Virus record (IMG/VR): IMGVR_UViG_3300031867_000009
Location: 71,307 to 135,306 of that record
Direction: 5' to 3' (one strand)
Length of the DNA: 64,000 nt
From: a virus
Lineage: Duplodnaviria > Caudoviricetes
Positions within the stretch are counted from its first letter, which is position 1. Each line of letters begins with the position of its first letter. This document shows positions 44,752-60,847 of this stretch, one piece after another. The translations under genes were made by a program, and so were the position numbers. The notes below the pieces were generated by a model, which did not search any database, was not told the origin of the DNA, and saw only the letters and a program-made list of their open reading frames with translations.

Positions 44752-45105
44752 CTACACGAGAGTGTAGCCCTTGACCTTTCCAGACTTGCCCTTGACCTCT
44801 GTCTGTGCTACGAGTCCAGCTGCAACCAGTCTCTTAGCGATTACAGTAGCCTTCTGCGAAGTCTCGATGCCCTCGACAGCGTCTCTGATGTCGGAAGCAG
44901 TCATAGCGTCCTCACCAAGCACTGCAAGCACTCCGTCCTCAAGCACCTTCTCCGAAGCCAGCTTCTCAGCTCTCTTCTCAGCTGCTCTGTTGCGTCTCTT
45001 CTCACCCTCAGCCTCGTGAGCCGCGAGCATTTCAACGAACTTTTCCTTAACGTCCTCTGTGATTTCGCCAGAGATAACTGCCTTGTAAGCTTCAACCTTA
45101 GTCAT
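44752..45105 (-). CDS. Paralog family A protein (winged-helix-like), copy 1
   Basis: MT..E.Y.A.I...coiled coil...MTASDI...TSQKA...LV...VKG...VKGY. Confidence 0.85.
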   Translation of the reverse strand: MTKVEAYKAVISGEITEDVKEKFVEMLAAHEAEGEKRRNRAAEKRAEKLASEKVLEDGVLAVLGEDAMTASDIRDAVEGIETSQKATVIAKRLVAAGLVAQTEVKGKSGKVKGYTLV

Positions 45106-45370
45106 TTTTTCCTTCTTTCTCTCACACTAGGTAGTGAGCACCAGTTACGTTTTGATTTGTTTTATAGTGGTGGAGAAGTTACTTTTCTCTCTCACTTTCT
45201 ATATATATTATAGCAAGATTTTCAGAACTTTTCAAATTATTTTCTTTCGAATCCTGCGTGAAAGCGGAGGATTTATTTTTATTTTCTCTCTCACTTTCTA
45301 TATATATTATAAAGCTATTTTGAAACTTTTTCAAATTTCAATTTGCGGGAACGCAGCCGCCATCGCCGGC

Positions 45371-45596
45371 GCAGCTCCTTCCATGCGCGCTGAAAATTTG
45401 ACAAAATTTTTCAAATTTTGACGACGACACAGCTCCAAAGAAATTTGATTTTAAAAGTCAAATTTTCAGGTGGCACCCCGCAGCTCCTAGTCGCAGCTCC
45501 TTTTCGTCGCACAGGCGCAGCTCCGTCGCGCGGGCCAGCCGCAGCTCCGTCGCGCGGGCCAGCCGCAGCTCCGACGCAGCTCCCTAATGCAGCTCC
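45371..45596. repeat. GCAGCTCC octamer cluster
   Basis: Eight exact copies (45371, 45480, 45493, 45517, 45541, 45565, 45576, 45589), including a 24-bp tandem duplication at 45517-45564. Confidence 0.95.
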
Positions 45597-45926
45597 TCCA
45601 CGGCCGACATCGGCGGCGCGTGGCCGCGGCACACGAACGTTTGTTCGGAACGTATGTTCGAGTTAGACACCTCTAACTAAGTTAGAGATCTCTAACTGTT
45701 AATAAATTATTAACAATCCGAACGTATGTTCGAAAAGTTGCTGCCCCCGATATATTATACCACATAACGCGCACGCTGTCAATGGAAATTTGACTTTGTT
45801 AAAAATTTGACAATCGGCCCGGGCAACACCGGATCACCCGGAAGATCCGGCCCGGACGCCCGCGACGATAATTGTTTATCTGTCACCGAACATATGTTCG
45901 ATAGTTGACCAATAAAAAAGGGTGGT

Positions 45927-46289
45927 TTACTTACCACCCTTTTCTGCAATCTCTGCGCGCTTGCGTCTGAGTTCTGCATCGCGTGCAATCTTGCGCGCCT
46001 TTTCGGCTTTGCGCTCTTCGGCTTTGCGTTCCTTCTCTGCGAGATTGTGAACGTAGTCCTCTGCGAGTGCATAACCATCGTATGGTTCTGTTCCCTTATT
46101 CGCACCCGTAGGCACTTTGAAATTGATAACGATGAAGTCCTCGTTGCCTTCGCAACCTACGCAAGGAATTGCGATTTCGTTGGACTTGACGCGAAGAACC
46201 TCTTCGCCACCTTCAAAGAGAAACTTCGACACTCTGTCGAGAAAATCTGCTCTGATAAGTTCACGTTCTGCTTTTCTTGATACTGCCAT
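45927..46289 (-). CDS. Paralog family B protein, copy 1
   Basis: VLRVKSNEIAIP.VGCEGNEDFIV...KVPTGANKG shared with 53824-54183. Confidence 0.85.
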   Translation of the reverse strand: MAVSRKAERELIRADFLDRVSKFLFEGGEEVLRVKSNEIAIPCVGCEGNEDFIVINFKVPTGANKGTEPYDGYALAEDYVHNLAEKERKAEERKAEKARKIARDAELRRKRAEIAEKGGK

Positions 46290-46504
46290 TTGACACCTAC
46301 CTTTCGGTTCACCTTTATCTTACAATATAATTATACTGATATTTTGAGATAATTCAAGTTCTTTAAAAAGTACAAGATTTGGGAAAGTTCGTCTTGACTA
46401 ACTCTGCGGCCGCCCGGTCCGGAAAAAGATTGTTGTTAATTTATTAACAAGGCCCGGGCGCAATGTTCGAACGTATGTTCATTTTGGTGTAAATAAAAAG
46501 AGGA

Positions 46505-46726
46505 TTATTCATCCTCAAAGGTATAATGGTATGCTTCTCTTGCGGTGACATTAGAGTTATAATACCAAGACCAAAAACATTCATATTGTGATAAAGTCAA
46601 ATTATTATGCGCTTGTCTTTTATAAATGCAATCATTAAAACTTTTCATTCTATGATACTGATTGTATAATTTATCGAGTTCTGTTTTCTTGTCTTTCTGT
46701 AAAGATTTAAATAAGTGTTTATTCAT
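46505..46726 (-). CDS. Hypothetical protein (single-gene cassette)
   Basis: Own TTGACA promoter and AGAAAGGAG RBS. Confidence 0.7.
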   Translation of the reverse strand: MNKHLFKSLQKDKKTELDKLYNQYHRMKSFNDCIYKRQAHNNLTLSQYECFWSWYYNSNVTAREAYHYTFEDE

Positions 46727-46870
46727 TGTTTTCTCCTTTCTGTGTCTAATATAATTATACTCATTTTTTCTTCTGTGTCAATACTTTTTTAAAAGTTATT
46801 TTTTTCACAAAGCGGACCGGCCGTGGTGTGTGAAAATTTTAACAAAGAACCCAAAAATAAAATGTGGTAT

Positions 46871-47512
46871 TTACCACATTTTACAATCGTAGTTAAGTCC
46901 GTCTAACTCGATACATTTCATTAAGATTTTATACTCGATTTCACTATCAGACAATGCCGTATGTTCTTCTACAAACTGATTGTCAAAGAAATAACGAGCG
47001 ACTATTTCCGCAGTATATCTGTTTGCATTTCTTGCGGTGGTATAACCATTATCAATGCAGAATTGACGATAATTTTTATCTGTTTTCAAAACTTCTCTTG
47101 AATATGCGAGTATATCACAAAACGAGGTTGCATAAGGAAAGAAATATCTATACTTTGATTTTGTAAGGTATCTCTGTGTTGTTGCGAGTGCGCAATAATC
47201 AAATCTGCAATTATACGCATAAACCTTTGTTATGTTGTTCTCTTTCATTATGTGGCGAAGTGTCCACATTATGTTTTTGAAAGAAGTTAGAGTTCTCAAA
47301 CCACTTTTAATCTCTTTCCAATATGTTGGGATTTTTTCTGCGAAGTATGCCGAAGCCATAAGTTCTTTATTGCAGAAAATGTCTGCGTTTACGAACGAAT
47401 GTTTGGAATAGATAGTTCCATTGTAGTCTGCGACTATAAAGCCACAATCATAAACGAGTGCGTCATCGAGTGAGTTCGTGGTTTCAGTATCTATGATAAG
47501 TATTTTTTCCAT
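46871..47512 (-). CDS. DEDDh 3'-5' exonuclease
   Basis: IIDTETT, AYNCRFD and HTALSD motifs. Confidence 0.9.
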   Translation of the reverse strand: MEKILIIDTETTNSLDDALVYDCGFIVADYNGTIYSKHSFVNADIFCNKELMASAYFAEKIPTYWKEIKSGLRTLTSFKNIMWTLRHIMKENNITKVYAYNCRFDYCALATTQRYLTKSKYRYFFPYATSFCDILAYSREVLKTDKNYRQFCIDNGYTTARNANRYTAEIVARYFFDNQFVEEHTALSDSEIEYKILMKCIELDGLNYDCKMW

Positions 47513-47651
47513 TTGTGTTTGTTCCTTTCTTTTATCTTACAATGTAATTATAAGCGATTTATTATGGGAAGTCAATACTTTTTTTATGTTTTTTTATGTT
47601 TTTCTGTCGTTAATTTTTTAACAAGGCGGCCCGGGCCAATTTGACACATAA

Positions 47652-47819
47652 CTAATATGTGTCATATCCTAATATTTCGGCTTCCCATTCTGAAACTATA
47701 TCGAGAAGTATTGGTTCTTCAAAATATGTGTATGCACATGTATATGCTTTTTCTTTTGTGTCAGTATGTACGAAAAATTCTTCGCCACTAACTCTATCAT
47801 AGAACAGATATTCTTTCAT
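47652..47819 (-). CDS. Small hypothetical protein
   Basis: GAGGAGG RBS before ATG 47819; ends AEILGYDTY. Confidence 0.7.
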   Translation of the reverse strand: MKEYLFYDRVSGEEFFVHTDTKEKAYTCAYTYFEEPILLDIVSEWEAEILGYDTY

Positions 47820-48216
47820 TTCAATCCTCCTCTTCTGATAATTCTTCGATAGAATCATAATATGAATCTGTTTCGTAAGAATAATCAATCATATCCAATG
47901 CTTCATCTACTGTATTCGCTTCAATGATATATTCAGTTGTCATTGTAATACGATAAGTTTTCATTTGTCTATCTCCTTTCTTTTGATACTTAATTATACC
48001 AATAATTTAAAATTTTGTCAACACCTAAATTTAAAAAAGTTTGTTGTTAATTTATTAACAATCGCGCCCGGTCAATGCCCGGGCCGGCGCGAACGTATGT
48101 TCGTTTTCTGCGAACGAAAAAACGCACTTGCGTGCGTTTCTTCTTGAAAGGAGGTGAAAGAAATGAAATCTTGTAAGTGGGGTGGGACTTATGCGTGCCC
48201 ACTATACGCTTATTTG

Positions 48217-48546
48217 TTAGGCGAGAAAGTAACCTTTCTGCGTTCCCTTTCCCTTAACCTTAACATCGACTGACTGAACGCCCTCGACTTTCTTAACGAG
48301 TGCCGATGCTTTCTGCGTTGAAATCTCGCAGAGTTCCGCAATCTTCGATGCGAGCATTGGCTCATCTGTGAGAACTCTCGAAATTGCTTCGATGATTGGC
48401 TCATTAGCAATCTGTGTCTTTGACTTGGTGTTTGCTCTCTTTGCGTTGCGAGCGTCAAGTTTTGCGATTGCTTCGCTTGCGAATGAGGTCATTTCCTCGT
48501 TGATGTTAGCGTTGATAACTGCGTTGTAGAAATCTCTGTTTGTCAT
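48217..48546 (-). CDS. Paralog family A protein, copy 2
   Basis: MTNRDFY...AIAKLDARNAKRA...ISTQKASALVKKVEGV...KGKGTQKGY. Confidence 0.85.
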   Translation of the reverse strand: MTNRDFYNAVINANINEEMTSFASEAIAKLDARNAKRANTKSKTQIANEPIIEAISRVLTDEPMLASKIAELCEISTQKASALVKKVEGVQSVDVKVKGKGTQKGYFLA

Positions 48547-48951
48547 AGTTTTTAGTTCCTTTCTTTTTTAACTCTTTAACTTGTGTCTTTATTATAACTG
48601 ATTTGTTTGGGTTTGTCAAGACTTTTTTAGAACTTTTTTAATTTTTTTATTCTGTTCTTTTCCATTCCTCTTGACAATTATATTTTAGCACTTTGGCTTT
48701 GTTTTGTCAAGGGGTTTTTCAAACTTTTTTTATTTTTTATTTTGAAATCCTTTTAAGGTTTTGCGTTCAAGACCGTTGACGTCATTGGTTTCTCGACTTA
48801 CTTATCCCCTTGACACTTATAATTATAATGATTTTTCCGCAGAAGTCAATACTTTTTTTAAAAGTTATTTTTTTAACAATCGCGCCCGGGCACGTTCAAA
48901 CATATGTTCGACCGGCCGCGAATGTATATTTATACATAAAAATGAGAACCT

Positions 48952-49386
48952 TTACAGAAAGGCTCTCATTTTCTTTATTAAATCTTTTTCATCGAGTGCA
49001 ATTCCATTCCATTCGTTTCTGTTGTGTTCTTCATCATCAAACAGAATACCTTTTGCAAGTGATGTTTTTGGTGTTCCGTAGTCTACGATATAAACATTAT
49101 CGAACTTTACGCTTGGAATGTGAGTTTCAAACCATTCAAGTTTAGTCTGTTTAACTCTTGCGTTATATTCTTTTGTTCCATTCTTTGAAGTCCACGAAAT
49201 GATATTTACTTTCCAACCTTTATTCTGTAATTCGTGAATTGTTCTTGCGAACCATACAAGATTTACAAGTGGTTTTGCTTCTCTGTATGGTCTAACATCT
49301 TCATTGATAAGGTCATCGAGCCAACCATTCACGCCATAGAGATTGATGAATGTTCCGTCGCAATCGAGATTGATAATTTTTGTCAT
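48952..49386 (-). CDS. HAD-superfamily (5'-nucleotidase-like) protein
   Basis: LDCDGT motif I, IISW, K..W, and ILFDD...N. Confidence 0.8.
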   Translation of the reverse strand: MTKIINLDCDGTFINLYGVNGWLDDLINEDVRPYREAKPLVNLVWFARTIHELQNKGWKVNIISWTSKNGTKEYNARVKQTKLEWFETHIPSVKFDNVYIVDYGTPKTSLAKGILFDDEEHNRNEWNGIALDEKDLIKKMRAFL

Positions 49387-50081
49387 TTCTGTTTTCCTCT
49401 CTTTCTTTCTTTGTATCTATATTATAGACTATTTATGAGAGTTTGTCAAGTCTTTTTTAAAAATTTCTTCACAAATTTTATTTAGTTTTTCGTTGCCGTC
49501 TCTCTCTTTCATTCTCGAAAGCAGACCGCTATTTTCTTTTAAAAGTCTTTCTAATTCTTTCATATCACACCTCTTTTTTCTTTATTATAAGCGATAAGTT
49601 TAAGGAAGTCAATGCCCTTTTATGTTTTTCTTTGTATTTCCGTTGTGAAAAAATTCACAATCGCGCCCGGTCGACTTTGTTGTTAATTTATTAACAATCT
49701 ACGTATAAGTTCGCGCGATGTAAAGTTTCCTTGACATCGCGCGAGTATACATATTTCTTTAATTTTCAAAAAAAGTTGCTTCGGCTTCAAACCAATTACG
49801 CAAATAGATAATAGTTTTTTCATAATCTTCATCAGAAAAATTATTTCTCATTACTTCATTTATTAAAAAAGTTTTTACTTTTTCTGCTACTTCTATTGTT
49901 TTATCCATTTTTATTCTCCTTTCTTATTACACTTATATTATAATCAAATTATTTCAATTTGTCAATACTTTTTAAAAGTTATTTTTTTAACAAATGACCG
50001 GACCAATGGACCGGCCCGCGCGAACATATGTTCGATATGTTCGCAATAAAAAAGGGTTAGCGAGTGCTAACCCCTTAAAGG

Positions 50082-50411
50082 CTATGCGAAGAAGTATCCC
50101 TTCTGTGTGCCCTTGCCCTTTACCTTGACATCGCACACGCTGACACCCTCAACCTTCTTGACAAGTGCGCTTGCCTTCTGTGTGGAGATTTCCATTTCCG
50201 AAGCAAGTTCGCTTGCGAGTTTCGGCTCAGATGTGAGAAGCGAAGCAATCTTCTCGATGAGTGGTGCGTTTTCTTTCTGTGTCTTGGTAGGTGTGGACGC
50301 TCTCTTTGCGTTGCGTGCATCGAGTTTTGCGATTGCATCTGTGGCGAAAGCCTTGAGTTCATCGTTGAGGTCAGAATTAACGATTGCTGTGAAGAATTCT
50401 CTGTTAGTCAT
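50082..50411 (-). CDS. Paralog family A protein, copy 3
   Basis: Closely similar to 48217-48546 along its full length. Confidence 0.85.
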   Translation of the reverse strand: MTNREFFTAIVNSDLNDELKAFATDAIAKLDARNAKRASTPTKTQKENAPLIEKIASLLTSEPKLASELASEMEISTQKASALVKKVEGVSVCDVKVKGKGTQKGYFFA

Positions 50412-51382
50412 AGTTTTGTTTTCCTTTCTTTTTTTATTAACTCTTTATTTTGTGATTATATTGTATCAGATTTAAGATGATTAGTCAAGAGGTTTTTTCA
50501 ATTTTTTTTCATACCTCTCTTTTTAAAGTGATTTGAGGATTCACTATCCTCTTGACTAATCTCAGTACTTGCTTTGGATTTATCCTTTTCACTTAGTGAA
50601 TGTCGGCACCTCTGCTTTCCCTTTTCTTATTTATATTGTAGCAAACTTTTGAGTGTTTGTCAATACCTTTTTTATGTTTTTTTGTTTTTTTGTCAAGGGG
50701 AACTTGTCAATCGAATTACCTTCCGCGCGCGTTGAAGTTTCTACCTTATCCCCTTGACAATTATATTGTATCACATTTCTGTGAAAGTGTCAAGAGGTAA
50801 ATCTCACTTTTTTGGATTTTACTGCCTTAAGGACTTACTACCGCGAAGTATCTTGATTTCCCCTTGACACTTATAATTATACTGATTTTTATTAGGAAGT
50901 CAACCCCTTTTTATGTTTTTATATCGAAACAATCGCGTTAAATTTTTCACAAGCGCGCCCGGACCATGGACCGGACTAAACGAACATATGTTCGATGAAG
51001 AGGGATCCGCGCAATAAAAAACTTCGACTAACAGTCGAAGTCGTAGCAACCCATATATGGGTTAAACCCGCATTCGTCACAATCGGGTTCATAGTCGAAG
51101 AACTCATCTCCGAGTTCTTCGAATGCCTCATCGAGGCACGCCTCTTCCATAGTGACGGCGTATTCCATTACATCGAGTTCTTCGTAAAGCATTGTGTTCT
51201 CCTTTCGATTTCTTTGTTATTGTGTAAGGCTCCATTATCCCGTCTTACTGCCTTGCGTGAGGACTTATTGCGTTCCCTTACTGTATCTATAGTATAGCAT
51301 ACCTTTGTGATGTTGTCAATACCTTTTTAAAAATTTTTTACTCGGTTTCTGTTGCCAAGCACCGAGGGACTCCGAATCTTAT

Positions 51383-51601
51383 TCAGTGGCGAGGTCTGCA
51401 TCCGTAGCAATCTTTGAAGAGATCGGAGTAGATTGCCCAATCCATTGGGTCATTACTCTCACACGCTCTGAGGTAAGCATCATGCTGTGCCTGCCATGCG
51501 TTGCGTTCATCTTCGATTGCTCTCTGCTCCTCTTCGAAAGCCTGAATGGTTTCTTCGGAGAGGTAGCACACACACCCGCGAATGGTGTATTCTCGAAGCA
51601 T
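51383..51601 (-). CDS. Hypothetical protein (cassette)
   Basis: Own promoter and RBS; ends YSDLFKDCYGCRPRH. Confidence 0.75.
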   Translation of the reverse strand: MLREYTIRGCVCYLSEETIQAFEEEQRAIEDERNAWQAQHDAYLRACESNDPMDWAIYSDLFKDCYGCRPRH

Positions 51602-52585
51602 TTAATTGTCTCCTTTCCTTTACTGTATCTATATTATAGCACGGTTTCGGTGTTTTGTCAATACCTTTTTAAAAAATTTTTTATTTTTTTTCGCCCCATA
51701 CACGCGCCCGTGCGTTTCCTGCGCCGGATCCGGCCCGGACACAATCGCACATATGTTCGTTTTCTTAAATAAAAAAAATAGACCTTGCGGTCTATCTTCT
51801 GATTTCGAATTCCTCTTGTCTTTCGAAAGTTTCAAGATATTCGATTGCTTCTGCGAGTGTTGCGAATGACCATTCAAAACCTGAGTCGATGTGAGTGAGT
51901 GTATACATTGTTTTTTCTCCTTTCCTTACCTTGTGTCTATATTATAGCATGAATCTGAAACTCTGTCAAGACCTTTTTTAAAATTTTTTTTAATTGGCTC
52001 GTATTCCTTCACGCGCCCGAGCGTGGCGCGGGAGTCCTAGCGACTCCTATTGCTCTAGGGCTTAACTTATGTCATCGCGCGGTTCCGCCCGTGCCCGCGC
52101 TTACTTAGGAAGTTTCATTCGGTTGTCTCCTTTCCTTTGATGATTTAATGATACCACATTTAAATGTTGATTGCAATACCTTTTTAAAAATTTTTTTATT
52201 TTGTTTGGGAGTCTAGAGGTCTTCCCCCATTTCCGACTCCCAAACATCGCAACCCCACCAGAGTTCGTGGAGTTCACACTCTGCGGCGAGTGGGCAACCC
52301 TCGCAAGTGTGACCCTCTGTAATATCGAATGTGCGGACGATTGCCATCATTTCTTTTCTTGTCATTTTAGTTTCTCCTTTCGGCTACCTTTATCTTACAA
52401 TGTAATATTACCATATCTGCAATGCCCTGTCAATAACTTTTTTCAAATTTATTAAAAAATTTTTTTCGCACATATGTTCGTCTGCGTGATCCGGACCGGA
52501 TCCGGTTTGATCCGGTCAGGCCATACCGGCCCGCAAGAGTACGTCTGTAAGGCCGTATTTTGCTCTATAACGAAAGAAATCACCT

Positions 52586-53059
52586 TTAGGCGACCCTTTC
52601 TTCGAACCACTTAATCATCTTTCCGCTTGTCTTAATTCTGACCTTTGTAGAGTGTTTATCCCATGTTGCAAAGTTTGTGGTGAACTCTCTGAACTCTTCC
52701 ATATTCATATTGTAGATTGTAACTTCTTCATCTATGATAATTACATAATCCACGTTTGTTGAGTGTGTTCTGCGGAAATACTCTGCGAGAAAATCTTCTT
52801 TGTTATCTGCGAGTTTTTCATCGGTGAGACCGCATCCGTTCGACTTGATTGATGTTCTTGTTTCCTCAATGTCCGAACCTTTATCGAACTTTGTGTTGGC
52901 GTCTTTCTTTGGCTCAAAACCTCTGATTGCTTTGCACACCACTTCGGAAAATTCTCCGCCGTTCTTGTGAGTTGTTTCACCTTCGATGAGGTAGTGGCTA
53001 CGTGGGTGATTTGCGTCGTATGTGTAATTGATTGGCATTGTTGCGATTGTCTTTGTCAT
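52586..53059 (-). CDS. Hypothetical protein, possible PD-(D/E)XK-like fold
   Basis: NGGEFSE...D..FDKGSDIE....SIKS; own promoter and RBS. Confidence 0.7.
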   Translation of the reverse strand: MTKTIATMPINYTYDANHPRSHYLIEGETTHKNGGEFSEVVCKAIRGFEPKKDANTKFDKGSDIEETRTSIKSNGCGLTDEKLADNKEDFLAEYFRRTHSTNVDYVIIIDEEVTIYNMNMEEFREFTTNFATWDKHSTKVRIKTSGKMIKWFEERVA

Positions 53060-53170
53060 GGCTTTGTTTCCTTTCTTTATCTCTTTCCTTTGACAATTAT
53101 ATGATACCACTTTGCTACCGCCCTGTCAATACTTTTTTTAAACTTTTTTAAATTTTTTTTCGCGCGGGCG

Positions 53171-53337
53171 CGGTTGCGAAAACGTTTTCGCAACCGATTC
53201 AACTATTCCGATATAACTAATTTTCGGAATAGTTGAGTGAACGAAATTTCAACGGTTTGAAGGTCGAAAATCGCTAACTATTCCCTAAAAACTAATTTTC
53301 GGAATAGTTGAACCGGCCGCGAACGAAAACGTTTTCG
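53171..53337. repeat. Composite palindrome block
   Basis: Perfect 26-bp CGGTTGCGAAAACGTTTTCGCAACCG, a second CGAAAACGTTTTCG at 53324, and two AACTATTCC...GGAATAGTT inverted repeats between them. Confidence 0.9.
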
Positions 53338-53369
53338 CAGTGGGCAATAAAAAACGGACTTGCGTCCGT

Positions 53370-53660
53370 TTAAATCATATTATATCCGAGTGATTGATGT
53401 TTTCTTGCTATCTCGATAACTTTCTTATCTTCAATGCCATATCTTTTAATCTGATTTGGTCTTGCGATTAACTTCGTTATCATTTTGTTTGTTTTTTCGT
53501 TTCTGATAATGATAATTCCGTTTGTTGTGATTGTGTGGAGTTCTGCACCATTTGGATGTCCTTTGTCAACCCTTACTGTTTTGATTTCTTTGCCTACACC
53601 GATTTCTCTGATGAGTTTCTCTCTGATGATGCGGTCTCTGTTGTAATGTCTGCTTGTCAT
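53370..53660 (-). CDS. Hypothetical basic protein (cassette)
   Basis: Own promoter, RBS and terminator. Confidence 0.8.
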   Translation of the reverse strand: MTSRHYNRDRIIREKLIREIGVGKEIKTVRVDKGHPNGAELHTITTNGIIIIRNEKTNKMITKLIARPNQIKRYGIEDKKVIEIARKHQSLGYNMI

Positions 53661-53823
53661 TGTTTTGATCTCCTTTCCTTTCTTTCTGTCTATAGTATAG
53701 CATAGAAGTGAGACCCTGTCAATACCTTTTTATGTTTTTTCTTGTATTTACTTTGTTGTTAATTTATTAACAAAGTCCGGACCGCATCGAACATATGTTC
53801 ATTTTTGTGCAAATAAAAAAGGG

Positions 53824-54183
53824 CTATTCGCCCTTTTCCGCAATCTCCTTTTTACGTTCTCTTATTTCTTTATCCTTTGCAATTTTCTTTGCCTTTTTCT
53901 CGGCATTTTCTTTTGCCTTGCGTTCTTTCTCTTTGAGTTTCATTTCATAATCCTCAGCGAGTTCAAAACCATCATAAGGCTCAAGACCTTTGTTTGCTCC
54001 CGTTGGAACTTTTACGGTTACAACGATAAAATCTTCATTGCCCTCACAACCTACAACGGGAATTGCAATCTCATTTGATTTAACTCTCAAAACTTGTTCG
54101 TCTTTGTCAAGAAAGTTCTCGATAATCTGTTTCAGATAATCCTCTCTCAAAAGTTCTCTTTCTACTTTTCTTGATACTGCCAT
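53824..54183 (-). CDS. Paralog family B protein, copy 2
   Basis: MAVSRK.ERELxR...; AGAAAGGAG RBS before ATG 54183. Confidence 0.85.
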   Translation of the reverse strand: MAVSRKVERELLREDYLKQIIENFLDKDEQVLRVKSNEIAIPVVGCEGNEDFIVVTVKVPTGANKGLEPYDGFELAEDYEMKLKEKERKAKENAEKKAKKIAKDKEIRERKKEIAEKGE

Positions 54184-54612
54184 AATTTTTTCTCCTTTCT
54201 TATTTTCTATAATTATTATATCATATTTTAATAAAAAAGTCAAGTTTTTATTTTAAAACAATCCAACCATAAACGGCACATAGAACATAAGAGGAAGCGA
54301 CAGCAAGAACAGAAAACCAAAGAACTCATGTTCGTAAACCTCAACAAGAACGGCACAAACCAAAGCGAATATAACCCAAAGTATAAATATAATCATTAAC
54401 ATTTTTATTTTCTCCTTTCTTATCTTTTGTAATTACATTATAACAGAAATGAAGAGGAAATGCAACTATCTTAACATTTATTAATAGAACAGAACATATG
54501 TTCGTGCGCGCCCGGTCGAAAGTTTGTTGTTAAATTATTAACAAAGTGGCCCGGATGAACGGCCGGGCGCGCATGAACGTATATTCGAATACGTAATAAA
54601 AAATATGTTGTG

Positions 54613-54798
54613 CTATATAAGCACAACACACTCTCTATTCTTTGCTACCCAAGCATAATCTTCACACTTGCCATAGTATCTTTCTGATTGTATTACTTCT
54701 ATATCTGTGGTTCGTGTATTACACTCATCAAACACTACTATATCAAGTTCTTTATTCTCTATCTGTTCAAGTTCTTTTATTAATTCCTTAACCGTCAT
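54613..54798 (-). CDS. Small phage protein (MTVKELI..L family)
   Basis: Own promoter and RBS. Confidence 0.7.
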   Translation of the reverse strand: MTVKELIKELEQIENKELDIVVFDECNTRTTDIEVIQSERYYGKCEDYAWVAKNRECVVLI

Positions 54799-55291
54799 TT
54801 TTCTTTCTCCTTTCTTTTATCTATCTATATTATAGACTATCTACAACCATTTGTCAAGTCTATTTTTATTTATTTTTTCTCTTTTCTTTCTTTTATCTGT
54901 ATAACTTCCTGTTCTAAATGGAATGTCTTGCGGTGGTCTTGTCTGTTTTAAAACATCAAGTCCACTAATTGTTCCAACCTTTATATTCTTCTTCTTTGCC
55001 ATCTCTACGCCCTCCCTAAATGTTCAAGTCTCATAGGTATCACTCTGATGTATACCTTTGTTAGTTCGTCTGTTGTCTTTCTCATCCAATGGTTGCGGTC
55101 TGTCTCTTTAATGCAACCGAGTATTATCATTCTGTTTATCATTTCTGTTTTTGTCATTTCGATCACTTCCTTTCTTTTGTTATTTACATTATAAATGAAT
55201 GAATAGGAATTGTCAAGTGTTTATTTTGTTTTTCTTTGTACTAAGTTTGTTGTTAAATTATTAACAAACTATCTCAATAAAAAGAGGACTT

Positions 55292-55531
55292 TTAGTCCTC
55301 TACATATAACCAAGATTCGAACTCTACATAATCATAAGGTACATTGAACTTCTTTGCAACTTCATCAATTTCTTCTCTTGATGCTATTCTATCTGCGAAG
55401 AGTGCTTCGATTGCTTCTTCGTATTCTTCGTTTCTATCTGCGAGTGCTTCAATAACTGCTTTATCCATTTCTTCTCTTGCTTTCATTGAGAGTGCTTCCA
55501 TATCGTATGTTCCTCTTACTTCGTACTTCAT
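55292..55531 (-). CDS. Hypothetical acidic protein (cassette)
   Basis: Own promoter and RBS. Confidence 0.75.
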   Translation of the reverse strand: MKYEVRGTYDMEALSMKAREEMDKAVIEALADRNEEYEEAIEALFADRIASREEIDEVAKKFNVPYDYVEFESWLYVED

Positions 55532-55762
55532 TTTCTTTTCCTACCTTTCTGTTTTCTGTTTTTCTCTTTTCTATGTCTATATTATAGCAATAAATCCCGG
55601 ACTTGTCAATACTTTTTTTAAATTTATTTTGTTTTTTTATGCACTAACTTTGTTGTTAATTTATTAACAATCTCCCTACTATATACACTCGTTAATAAAT
55701 TAACAACAAACTTCCGAACATATGTTCGGGGGAAAACTCCCCTAAAAAAAGAATGAGAGTTT

Positions 55763-56227
55763 TTATCCTCTCATTCTTATCATCTGTCCTTCATTTATGA
55801 AGGTTGCTTTTTCAAACTTTATCTGATACTTTACTCCGTCAACTGTGAGGTCTCCGTCAACTGTGTATGGCACATTGTCCTTTGTCCAAGTCTGTCCGAA
55901 GTACTCTGTTACTAACTTCTCGACTATCTCACCCTTGTTGTACTTGCTCTCTGCTACGAGTGTGTTGAACATCTCTGTTGAGCAAAGCACGAATGACTTA
56001 CCGCTCATCAGTGCGACCTTCTCACTGTTGTTAGGCTTGAAGCGGATTGAGTATCCCTGTCCTTTGCTTGCCTTGTCGAGTTTAACGCCTGTGTTGAAGA
56101 GCGTCTCACTTGTTGTCTCTACTGCGATGATGTTGCCTTTGTAGTTGAAAGCTACGATGTAGTTGTGAGTTGCGCTTGTCTCGTTGTAGAAGTTGATGAG
56201 TGTATTTCTGATGATTGTCTTTTCCAT
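55763..56227 (-). CDS. Hypothetical protein, possible PD-(D/E)XK-like fold
   Basis: NKGEIVE...DNVPY...GDL......YQIKF; leader nearly identical to that of 52586-53059. Confidence 0.7.
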   Translation of the reverse strand: MEKTIIRNTLINFYNETSATHNYIVAFNYKGNIIAVETTSETLFNTGVKLDKASKGQGYSIRFKPNNSEKVALMSGKSFVLCSTEMFNTLVAESKYNKGEIVEKLVTEYFGQTWTKDNVPYTVDGDLTVDGVKYQIKFEKATFINEGQMIRMRG

Positions 56228-56613
56228 TGTTCTGTTCCTTTCTTTATCTCTCCCTTGTTTCTGTCTATAGTATACTCTCATAGTCCGGATTTGTCAAGCA
56301 CTATTTTAAAATTTGTTTTGTTTTTATATCCGTACAATCGTGTTAAACTTTTAACAATCTATCTACTTACTTCTGAGGAGAAACACCATTGTTGATTGTT
56401 AAATTCTTAACAAGCCACGGACTAATGACCGACTGATGAAGAGGGACGCTTTAGCACTTTAGCGTGCTAAAGCGCGACGGACTGTGGTCAGAGGGAATTG
56501 AAAACGAACGTATGTTCGTTTTCAACTTCGAACGTTTGTTCGTCGAAAATCTCCATAAAGGGGGTATTTCTTTTAACTCGACCCCATTAAAAAAATCCCT
56601 TCCATTTAAGGAA

Positions 56614-56677
56614 GGGACTCCGATTTTTTACAAAAGTAGTTCCTACAACGGGACTCCGATTTTTTACAAAAAGTAGT
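56614..56677. repeat. 27-bp direct repeat
   Basis: GGGACTCCGATTTTTTACAAAA(A)GTAGT at 56614 and 56650. Confidence 0.9.
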
Positions 56678-56803
56678 GTCAGAATTAGCTTGTGAAATTT
56701 TTAACAAAGGATCGGCAGGTACCGGGGTATGTTCTCGGAAAAGAACGTTTGTTCTCAGCCAAATTCACCGGCGCCTGGAAAATAAACTCCACGAAATCAA
56801 AAA

Positions 56804-57142
56804 TCAAATATAATATCCTTTTCGCTTACCCTTCTTCGTCTTTACATCGCAACTACGTATTCTCCCCTCTCGTATGAGGTTCGTACAAATCGCCGTCAAA
56901 CGCTGTCGCGCGAACGTAGACCCGACCAACTCGGCTAACTCATCGATCTGAACCGGTTCGCTCGCCTGAAGCAGTGCCGCATAAATACGTTCTTCCACTT
57001 CTTTATTTTCGCTATAATTCTGATTCTCCCGTGCATGGGTGCGATGGACATCGAGTTTCTCCAACTCCCTTTTACAATCGGCAATTAACTCCTCGTTAAT
57101 TTCTCCCCTAATAACCATCTCAAGTCTTTCTCTACGTGTCAT
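56804..57142 (-). CDS. Paralog family A protein, divergent copy 4
   Basis: MTRRE.L...I.GEINEEL......LEKLD...EP....ELAE......Q...A....L.......DVK.KKG.RKGY. Confidence 0.75.
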   Translation of the reverse strand: MTRRERLEMVIRGEINEELIADCKRELEKLDVHRTHARENQNYSENKEVEERIYAALLQASEPVQIDELAELVGSTFARQRLTAICTNLIREGRIRSCDVKTKKGKRKGYYI

Positions 57143-59863: not shown

Positions 59864-60847
59864 ATGGCTTTAAATCCGCATTTTGATATAGATTTTAGCT
59901 CAAAGAAATGCGTGTGTTGCGGCCAGATGAAGGATTCTTTTTCTTATTTGAGAACCAAGTCGTTCATGTATCCGACTGGATATGTGGATGTATGTATTGA
60001 CTGTCTAGGGGATAGATTGGAGAAATCGGATTTTGATTGGAATGTGATGGATAAGATTTGTCAGTATCTGGACATTCCTTTTGAATTGGACAAGTTTGAA
60101 GAGCTACGTCAGACGCACTCTGCGGCCGACCTATTAAAAGCCTATAACTTGATTTATTTCTCTGATGAATATGATGAGTTGGATTGGTCTTCTTACCAAG
60201 AGGCGTATCGCGAACTCAATGCGGCCGGCGCACTCGACGAGGTCGTCCCTGGACTCACAGATGAAAAACGTAGGAAGCTACAAGAGAAATGGGGCTATAA
60301 TTATGATGAGGAAGCATTACACTACTTAGAAAATCTCTATGATGGTTTATTGCTTACTCAAAATATCAATGGCGCACTACAAGGCGACCAAGCTCTGAAA
60401 ATCTGTAAAATTTCCTATGAGATAGATTGTAGAATTAGAGAGGGTGCAGATTTTGATAAGTTGCTTGCTTCATATGACAAGCTAGTTAAAACTGGTGAGT
60501 TTACTCCAAAGAACGTAAAGAATGCAAGCGACTTTGAATCAATGGGTGAACTGTGTAGATGGCTGGAGAAGCGCGGCTTTGTAAATAGGTTTTATGATGG
60601 TGAGACGCGTGATGTCGTGGACGAAACCATAAAGAACATACAGAGTTGGAATCAACGCCTCTATACAAACGAATCTGGTATTGGCGACGAAATAACTCAA
60701 CGTATTCGTGCGTTGAAGACTGCGGCTGAGCTTGAGTCATACTATGACCTAAGCGATAAAGAAGATGACTATGATAACTATGAGAATGAAGGATTCGAGC
60801 AGTTATTTAAGGATGATGAGTTCGAAGCTGAGTTGGAGGACAAGTAA
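59864..60847 (+). CDS. Zn-finger protein upstream of terL (candidate terminase small subunit)
   Basis: CVCCG...CIDC; stop overlaps the terL start; function inferred from position. Confidence 0.6.
   Translation: MALNPHFDIDFSSKKCVCCGQMKDSFSYLRTKSFMYPTGYVDVCIDCLGDRLEKSDFDWNVMDKICQYLDIPFELDKFEELRQTHSAADLLKAYNLIYFSDEYDELDWSSYQEAYRELNAAGALDEVVPGLTDEKRRKLQEKWGYNYDEEALHYLENLYDGLLLTQNINGALQGDQALKICKISYEIDCRIREGADFDKLLASYDKLVKTGEFTPKNVKNASDFESMGELCRWLEKRGFVNRFYDGETRDVVDETIKNIQSWNQRLYTNESGIGDEITQRIRALKTAAELESYYDLSDKEDDYDNYENEGFEQLFKDDEFEAELEDK

Follow-up and report, generated by a model that had tools for sequence, protein, structure and literature searches.

The window analysed here is the final 64 kb (64,000 nucleotides, nt) of the 135,306-bp viral contig IMGVR_UViG_3300031867_000009, which belongs to a rumen phage and is rated complete by CheckV. 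Window positions 44752–57142 are occupied, on the minus strand, by an array of early-gene cassettes comprising about 25 small genes, most of which have their own sigma-A promoter and intrinsic terminator. The promoters of the array (about 26, minus strand) are near-consensus, with the form TTGACA-17-TATAAT and an A-tract UP element. The gene products mostly lack a known family, with the exceptions of an NT5C-like nucleotidase, an exonuclease-like protein, and a winged-helix family. The spacers of this array carry a dense series of predicted operators for two host repressors, through which the phage probably reads or soaks up host LexA (DNA damage) and Rex (redox state).

LexA- and Rex-type boxes of the early array

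The GAAC-N4-GTTC pattern (GAACNNNNGTTC) has 15 exact matches in the window, all located at 45635–56754 (shuffled sequences: mean 0.79, maximum 4). Ten of these 15 LexA-type boxes are full 14-mer palindromes (CGAAC-N4-GTTCG), and four are exactly CGAACATATGTTCG. The Rex-type pattern TTGTKAA-N4-TTMACAA (TTGTKAANNNNTTMACAA) has ten exact matches, all at 46433–56707, against 0.02 expected. Near copies accompany both types: four or five further LexA-like spacer boxes have one or two arm mismatches (at 48897, 51746, 52467, and 54574), and five Rex-like boxes have one mismatch and two have two. When one or two arm mismatches are allowed, the array contains about 19 LexA-type and about 17 Rex-type boxes. 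A sequence-only reading of this region had listed 14 perfect LexA-type boxes, ten perfect Rex-type boxes, and several near copies of each, and had seen none in the rest of the window; the recount returns the same ten Rex-type boxes, one more LexA-type match, and near copies of both types, with every exact match within 45.6–56.8 kb. A pattern scan of the whole genome bears out the confinement: only one more GAAC-N4-GTTC (genome position 58002) and no Rex-type box lie in the remaining 124 kb. The additional LexA-type core at 54322 (AGAACTCATGTTCG; 54321–54334) lies within an open reading frame of 49 amino-acid residues for a DUF2484-like membrane protein (54253–54402). It is kept in the relatives L007, L009, and L010, and is probably conserved as coding sequence, not as an operator.

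The identity of the boxes was assessed from motif logos in which the window was pooled with 13 related loci (14 loci; 128 unique LexA-type and 66 Rex-type contexts). The LexA-type logo has flanking C (82%) and G (77%), an A-T-A-T/C centre, and zero information beyond the 14-mer. At the positions left unfixed in the search, it reproduces CGAACATATGTTCG, which is the published LexA consensus with flanking C/G and an ATAT centre (PMC8270828 Table 1). In the Rex-type boxes, centre positions are about 98% A/T, and T and G are mixed at position 5, corresponding to the clostridial and general forms. The Rex operator is described as TTGTGAAW4TTCACAA with an A/T-only centre and K/M wobble (PMC2883068; PMC9600882). 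The earlier assignment to the LexA SOS box and the Rex operator is thus matched by the published secondary preferences, and by motif identity the boxes are predicted LexA and Rex operators. Neither lexA (PF01726) nor rex (PF06971) was found anywhere in the phage, which extends to the whole genome an absence previously noted for the window. A phage-encoded LexA, Rex, or Crp/Fnr-type regulator was rejected, with no match even at E = 1. Other host operators were also looked for: the patterns of cre (CcpA) and CodY are not enriched in the array, and no NrdR box was found there; the only recurrent motifs of the array are those of LexA and Rex and a CCGG-type linker motif.

Conservation was measured in the DNA of 12 relatives aligned to the array. 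Identity is 94–96% in the −35 and −10 hexamers, 88.7% in Rex arms against 76.5% in Rex box centres, and 87.3% in LexA arms against 78% in LexA box centres; the values for other spacer DNA, codon position 2, and codon position 3 are 76.7, 88, and 64%, respectively. Box arms are conserved to the level of codon positions 1–2, and box centres diverge as neutral spacer does. Purifying selection acts on the arms but not on the centres, and conserved arms with free centres are the pattern expected from a dimeric DNA-binding protein.

Order and spacing within the cassette spacers

Along the direction of transcription, the spacers are ordered as terminator hairpin and T-run, LexA box, CCGG-rich linker, one or two Rex boxes, A-rich UP element, −35, and −10. 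In the window, the boxes lie on the upstream side of promoters, with Rex centres at −55 to −90 and LexA centres at −88 to −147. Across the 14 loci, none of 145 LexA boxes and two of 73 Rex boxes fall inside −50 to +10 of a promoter; many of the boxes in both totals are orthologous to one another and do not represent independent events. The distribution of Rex centres has peaks at −64.5 and −74.5; the centres of LexA boxes extend from about −85 to −150. Rex boxes at most 120 bp from a LexA box are on its promoter side in 43 cases, against 10 on the other side, and the centre-to-centre distance peaks at 32–34 bp. Coupling to the terminator is also pronounced: 60 of the 145 LexA boxes start 9–19 nt after a terminator T-run, compared with 4.6% of random positions. 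In the window, seven of nine terminator-linked LexA boxes start 16–19 nt past the hairpin base, and all nine hairpins are unrelated in sequence.

This geometry speaks against simple repression. The sequence-only reading had described off-promoter placement and CCGG-rich linkers and had judged the arrangement to exceed what simple repression needs, all of which is upheld: the boxes avoid core promoters, 41 of 56 genomic copies of the linker motif CCGGDC/GHCCGG lie in the array, and CCGGGCGC occurs in seven copies there and none elsewhere. The boxes are not a common trait of strong promoters of the phage, as 28 other near-consensus promoters in the genome have no box. Overlap of LexA boxes with a repressed promoter, the usual LexA-operator arrangement, is not seen; the sole classical position is the one at +21 of promoter P45782. 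A role as operators of antisense promoters was rejected, as no plus-strand promoter overlaps any box, and so was a class I activator reading of the Rex-type box, since the centres in the window scatter over −57 to −90 without strict phasing.

The individual boxes are described here in the direction of transcription, from high to low coordinates. A gene-free upstream control region (56396–56755) contains Rex boxes at 56396 and 56690, LexA boxes at 56505, 56529, and 56742, two direct repeats, and a palindrome. A Rex-like box with one mismatch (56340–56357) has its centre at −86.5. The LexA box CGAACATATGTTCG at 55715–55728 starts 22 nt past a terminator hairpin and is followed by a Rex-like box with one mismatch (55689–55706) and a Rex box centred at −87.5 (55653–55670); another Rex box (55250–55267) is centred at −77.5. 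The Rex box at 54527–54544 has LexA boxes on either side, namely a LexA-like box with two mismatches located 18 nt past a terminator hairpin (54574–54587) and AGAACATATGTTCG with one mismatch (54491–54504). A minimal spacer with the complete grammar is formed by a LexA box with one mismatch, 19 nt past the terminator hairpin (53788–53801), and a Rex box centred at −77.5 (53756–53773). The LexA-like box CGCACATATGTTCG, with one mismatch, is found twice, at 52467–52480 and at 51746–51759, the latter 18 nt past a terminator hairpin.

Farther downstream, the LexA box CGAACATATGTTCG is present at 50981–50994, near a Rex-like box with two mismatches centred at −74.5 (50935–50952), and again at 50021–50034, 19 nt past a terminator hairpin. 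Both Rex forms occur in one spacer, in which the TTGTGAA/TTCACAA form (49643–49660) is centred at −74.5 and the TTGTTAA form (49680–49697) is the second box. The LexA-like box CAAACATATGTTCG (48897–48910) has one mismatch, and CGAACGTATGTTCG at 48090–48103 lies 16 nt past a terminator hairpin, close to a Rex box centred at −66.5 (48044–48061). Two Rex-like boxes with one mismatch each have their centres at −75.5 (47607–47624) and −89.5 (46828–46845). A LexA box with one mismatch (46468–46481), 18 nt past its terminator hairpin, is 33 bp from the exact Rex box TTGTTAATTTATTAACAA (46433–46450). The LexA box CGAACATATGTTCG at 45887–45900 starts 19 nt past a terminator hairpin, and the Rex-like box TTGTTAAAAATTTGACAA (45796–45813; one mismatch) is centred at about −57. 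P45782, at the downstream end of the array, is the exception to upstream placement: CGAACGTATGTTCG at 45719–45732 lies at about +21, and two more LexA boxes are located farther along the leader, where CGAACGTTTGTTCG (45634–45647), within the transcribed leader, is in tandem with GGAACGTATGTTCG (45647–45660; one mismatch), with one base in common. A Rex-like box with two mismatches is at 45699–45716.

The linker motif is located at 45810–45870, 48061–48090, 49661–49675, 50953–50980, 52480–52530, and 54505–54570. This third recurrent spacer motif, CCGGGCGC or, in its more general form, GNCCGGNC (represented by GCCCGGGC, GTCCGGAC, and GACCGGTC), is 8.6-fold enriched in the array. The spacers also contain one-off perfect palindromes (AGTTAGAGATCTCTAACT, TGACACATA-N5-TATGTGTCA, ATGTATATTTATACAT, and CTTTAGCAC-N6-GTGCTAAAG), among them two copies of the cre-like GCGAAAACGTTTTCGC that bracket long inverted repeats. 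These sites (45661–45697, 47642–47664, 48922–48937, 53175–53341, and 56449–56472) are too rare for enrichment testing.

Related phages, candidate hosts, and winged-helix paralogs

When 2.9 million viral contigs were scanned for LexA boxes with a Rex box 5–35 nt farther on, 13 contigs were returned, all of which are relatives with 66–91% identity to the array in patches. Each of these loci (L001–L013) has its own array, with 7–20 LexA and 2–18 Rex boxes per approximately 10 kb, and at least 17 related rumen viral contigs have similar arrays. In complete relatives, the boxes are confined to one region; a 136.6-kb relative has all nine of its full LexA boxes within 6 kb. A relaxed scan added array-bearing contigs that are more distant: a complete 181-kb phage with six perfect LexA boxes within 7 kb (G013), a contig with ten Rex boxes and one LexA box (G010), and a contig with about 18 sites in an 850-bp gene-free stretch (L113/G009). 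The two box types expand independently (LexA/Rex: L003, 20/5; L004, 16/18; G010, 1/10). The cassettes behave as modules: they include paralogous genes, and relatives differ by insertions and deletions at the cassette level. In L113 (IMGVR_UViG_3300031760_000072), positions 300–1160 contain nine perfect Rex boxes of the extended form GATTGTTAA-N4-TTAACAATC together with about nine LexA-type boxes, and this cluster is upstream of the first early promoters in the 60-kb contig.

The array is not shared by the phage group at large. The terminase shares about 40% identity with its counterparts in the large Firmicute siphophages Geobacillus E3, Alicyclobacillus KKP_3916, Enterococcus H1, and Phass-1, and the genomes of these four phages hold one to three chance-level cores per 120–141 kb. 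Kinship with the SPbeta YonF-type terminase is distant (32–34% identity), and no close DNA relative among published phage genomes was matched by megablast. The contig ends (genome 1–889 and 134418–135306) overlap by 889 nt with 91.5% identity, which indicates a circular map; the identity of only 91.5% suggests that the map was assembled across strain variants and does not reflect an exact terminal repeat. Searches of the phage for a tyrosine integrase, a large serine recombinase, and ParB found none, and a temperate or plasmid lifestyle was accordingly rejected.

The xanthine/uracil permease of the phage (24923–26194) is 85% identical to that of rumen Anaerovoracaceae genomes and 81% identical to that of a Mogibacterium genome; it is a recent host-derived gene and provides the best host lead. 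Four candidate-host genomes (1.4–2.8 Mb) all contain lexA and rex. In all four, a GAAC-N4-GTTC box upstream of recA abuts the −10 element, the classical repressor position, although the host assignment is a lead only. Each of these genomes has zero or one perfect LexA 14-mer and zero or one perfect Rex box, along with about six to eight LexA sites with intact arms and up to one mismatch; the sole perfect Rex pair is upstream of an alanine symporter gene. With ten perfect LexA 14-mers and ten perfect Rex boxes, the phage genome therefore has more consensus operators than a candidate-host chromosome.

Four winged-helix paralogs are encoded on the minus strand of the array, with 112 (56804–57142), 109 (50082–50411), 109 (48217–48546), and 117 (44752–45105, the last gene of the array) amino-acid residues. 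The product of 50082–50411 is predicted by AlphaFold2 to have a PadR/ArsR/MarR-like fold (predicted local distance difference test, pLDDT, 89.6). These paralogs have no similarity to the DNA-binding domains of LexA or Rex. The family is found near boxes in four of five related records tested, the exception being a 14-kb fragment, and in G011 a single copy lies about 350–480 bp downstream of a LexA–Rex pair. The CCGG-type linker motif is a natural candidate target of these proteins. The two 109-residue genes are each preceded by three or four chained tandem consensus promoters (48591–48860 and 50470–50910) with a CCCCTTGACA-type −35 element; CCCTTGAC has seven copies in the array and none elsewhere.

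Possible roles of the boxes

Host LexA and Rex are likely to bind the boxes, because perfect consensus operators in accessible DNA get bound. Tentatively, the boxes may be regarded as selected docking sites for host LexA and Rex that couple the insulation and expression of early cassettes to the state of the host, with titration of the repressors as a likely side effect. RNA polymerase at the release point of a terminator, 7–9 nt past the hairpin, covers about 18–20 nt of downstream DNA. This footprint includes the first half of a LexA box positioned 16–19 nt past the hairpin, so that LexA would meet every polymerase at the terminator. Bound LexA would then be a roadblock, making termination more secure and keeping read-through away from the following promoter, whose activity would be damped or tuned by Rex sitting immediately upstream of the UP element. 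Stress would free both proteins from the DNA, through RecA-driven cleavage of LexA and high NADH in the case of Rex, and with both released in this way, cassette insulation and early output would track the SOS and NADH states of the cell. Because the phage genome has more consensus sites than a candidate-host chromosome, its replication would also drain both repressors. The fixed order, the set distance from the terminator, and the 32–34 bp LexA–Rex spacing point to a cis-acting design, away from loose decoys, and titration is probably not the primary selected function.

Several points weigh against a docking role of this kind. The orthologous copies among the pooled boxes mean that the positional statistics overstate independence. 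Boxes are present at only about half of the promoters in the array, and the distance from Rex box to promoter is not strictly phased (−57 to −90 in the window). The terminators look strong alone, and a roadblock may be unneeded. Dense promoterless clusters of boxes (L113, with about 18 sites per 850 bp, and both ends of the array) appear to fit a sink better than promoter control, and the four array-encoded winged-helix paralogs could be the true binders. Furthermore, the host assignment rests on a single gene, that of the permease, and known Rex targets in the four candidate-host genomes gave no confirmation of the Rex motif.

The promoterless clusters are better accommodated if the boxes serve primarily as a DNA sponge that titrates LexA and Rex during replication and derepresses the host SOS and redox/fermentation regulons without a phage protein; in that case, placement in spacers would merely keep the boxes from blocking phage promoters. 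Titration of repressors by multicopy operators is an established effect, as in the Fur titration assay, and it is physically plausible here from the numbers of sites, with ten perfect LexA and ten perfect Rex sites per phage against zero or one of each per candidate-host genome. The boxes are full-consensus sites, better than the recA operators of the hosts themselves (AGAACAGATGTTCG and similar). They avoid core promoters, gene-free clusters exist (L113; 56396–56755), and the numbers of LexA and Rex boxes vary independently among relatives (L003, L004, G010). A sponge, however, needs no fixed order, no 16–19 nt coupling to terminators, and no 32–34 bp LexA–Rex spacing, and a box 9–12 nt past the release point is swept by each polymerase that reaches the terminator, which makes it a poor site for a resting decoy. 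In addition, the other non-coding DNA of the phage has no boxes, and a benefit to the phage from SOS or Rex derepression remains hypothetical. A sponge as the primary function is considered rather unlikely. Equally doubtful is a broader form of the idea, a host takeover without any protein, in which about 35 operators per genome copy would drain the LexA and Rex pools and turn on the SOS and redox/fermentation regulons and, while occupied early in infection, would insulate the cassettes. If true, such a takeover could hold back cell division and feed the anaerobic ribonucleotide reductase of the phage, and DNA sequence alone would be the effector against two host global repressors.

The remaining explanations invoke other binders, another step of infection, or no binding at all. 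The four winged-helix paralogs might work on the palindromes, mimicking or competing with host repressor specificity, and run an early-to-middle switch. They are encoded inside the array behind strong or chained promoters, have a PadR/ArsR/MarR-like fold, and are co-located with boxes in most of the related records tested, including G011. Yet two unrelated phage specificities would each need to copy a host consensus down to its secondary preferences, the paralogs do not resemble LexA or Rex in their DNA-binding domains, and host LexA and Rex would bind perfect consensus sites regardless; the CCGGGCGC-type motif and the one-off palindromes are more natural targets, and this explanation is improbable. 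An entry or anchoring device, in which the array enters the cell first and bound host proteins stop, ratchet, or protect the incoming end, draws on the adjacent packaging/structural module (terminase gene at 60847, a distance of about 4 kb), on gene-free box clusters with direct repeats at both ends of the array, and on the published analogy with DnaA boxes in the injection-stop region of T5 (10.1101/866236). It is very improbable given that the contig is a circular map, that the boxes are spread across 11 kb at promoter junctions and not at one stop site, and that LexA and Rex are not membrane-bound; for the protein coat or ratchet suggested by the sequence-only reading, no observation speaks in favour. 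Least credible of all is the absence of any binding function, with the boxes as passengers in repeated spacer modules that have spread through duplication and recombination of cassettes, comparable to T4-type promoter/stem-loop repeats. The modular cassettes, the paralogous genes, the cassette-level insertions and deletions between relatives, and the recurrence of the grammar suit such passengers, but the arms are conserved while centres and linkers drift, the terminator hairpins beside the boxes are unrelated in sequence, and duplication alone is not expected to give exact matches to two host consensus sequences.

Sites for host regulators on phage DNA are of a known kind. The virulent Bacillus phages phi29 and Nf have host Spo0A boxes, as shown experimentally (PMC2731898). 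As in these phages, the array places predicted host global-regulator sites in the early region of a lytic Firmicute phage and would couple its programme to host physiology. The few sites of phi29 overlap early promoters and origins and act by direct repression, whereas the array has about 35 predicted sites for two other regulators, nearly all of them outside core promoters and tied to terminators; its boxes lie upstream of the UP elements and are not positioned to block early promoters. SPbeta has about ten LexA boxes, some of which are bound by LexA in vitro, with a role that is not established (PMC8270828 Table 1, citing Au et al., 2005). Like the present phage, it is a phage of Firmicutes with several LexA boxes, its genome is of similar size (about 134 kb), and its terminase is distantly related, but it is temperate, and its boxes have three to five mismatches to the 14-mer, are scattered, and partly overlap promoters. 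By contrast, the array has ten boxes with perfect arms (four of which match all 14 positions) in a single 11-kb array with Rex boxes, in a phage in which no integrase was found.

Lysogeny of GIL01 is controlled by host LexA and phage gp7 (PMC4551915). In both GIL01 and the present phage, host LexA sites (here predicted) occur on the DNA of a Firmicute phage instead of sites for a phage repressor. The GIL01 boxes, however, lie in one promoter (P1) and serve the lysogeny of a small tectivirus, whereas the array spans many junctions of a large phage in which lysogeny or maintenance genes (tyrosine integrase, large serine recombinase, ParB) were not detected. T5-like phages have a cluster of DnaA boxes in the injection-stop region that is proposed to stop DNA entry (bioRxiv 10.1101/866236). 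In T5, as in the array, a conserved cluster of sites for host DNA-binding proteins lies in untranslated early DNA, and a non-transcriptional role is hypothetical in both; all eight T5 boxes are for the same protein and sit together at one site of the terminal repeat, unlike the boxes of the array, which are spread over cassette junctions. With respect to gene organization, the array of small early genes, each with a strong promoter and terminator, is like the mobile promoter/stem-loop cassettes of T4-type phages and the host-takeover module of SPO1. Small early genes with their own strong promoter and terminator are characteristic of both systems, and to our knowledge no host-repressor operators have been reported at their junctions.

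A search of the full-text literature found no description of LexA or Rex operator arrays in virulent phages. What is new is a clade-wide, dual-repressor array that lies off promoters and is tied to terminators. Known phages that read host state do so via small numbers of host-regulator sites (Spo0A in phi29; LexA in GIL01 and SPbeta), and the dual-repressor array is a different design. If LexA acts as a roadblock, the array would represent a new way of placing terminators and cassette insulation under the control of host stress; if it is a sink, it would represent a DNA-only mechanism of host takeover. The array is also a sequence signature for predicting the hosts and physiological triggers of uncultured rumen and gut phages.

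Other features were noted in the array and in the contig scans. A cassette at 51990–52120 has a promoter and a ribosome-binding site and an open reading frame of only five codons (MKLPK), followed by a GC-rich structured stretch; it may specify a small RNA or else a leader peptide. Several viral contigs of about 46% GC form a group (L115, L117–L120, L124, and L130–L135) in which each has a single pair of LexA and Rex boxes; the pair may mark regulatory DNA conserved in a phage family that is unrelated and perhaps temperate. A GC-rich non-coding stretch (45340–45600), situated between the last LexA boxes and the promoters that precede the final winged-helix gene, contains about ten copies of GGAGCTGCG; the 8-mer GCAGCTCC of this stretch has eight copies in the array and one elsewhere. 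L113 has a comparable repeat (GCTCCAAAAG...) next to its box cluster, and the repeat stretch at 45340–45600 could be an origin, a non-coding RNA, or a binding array.

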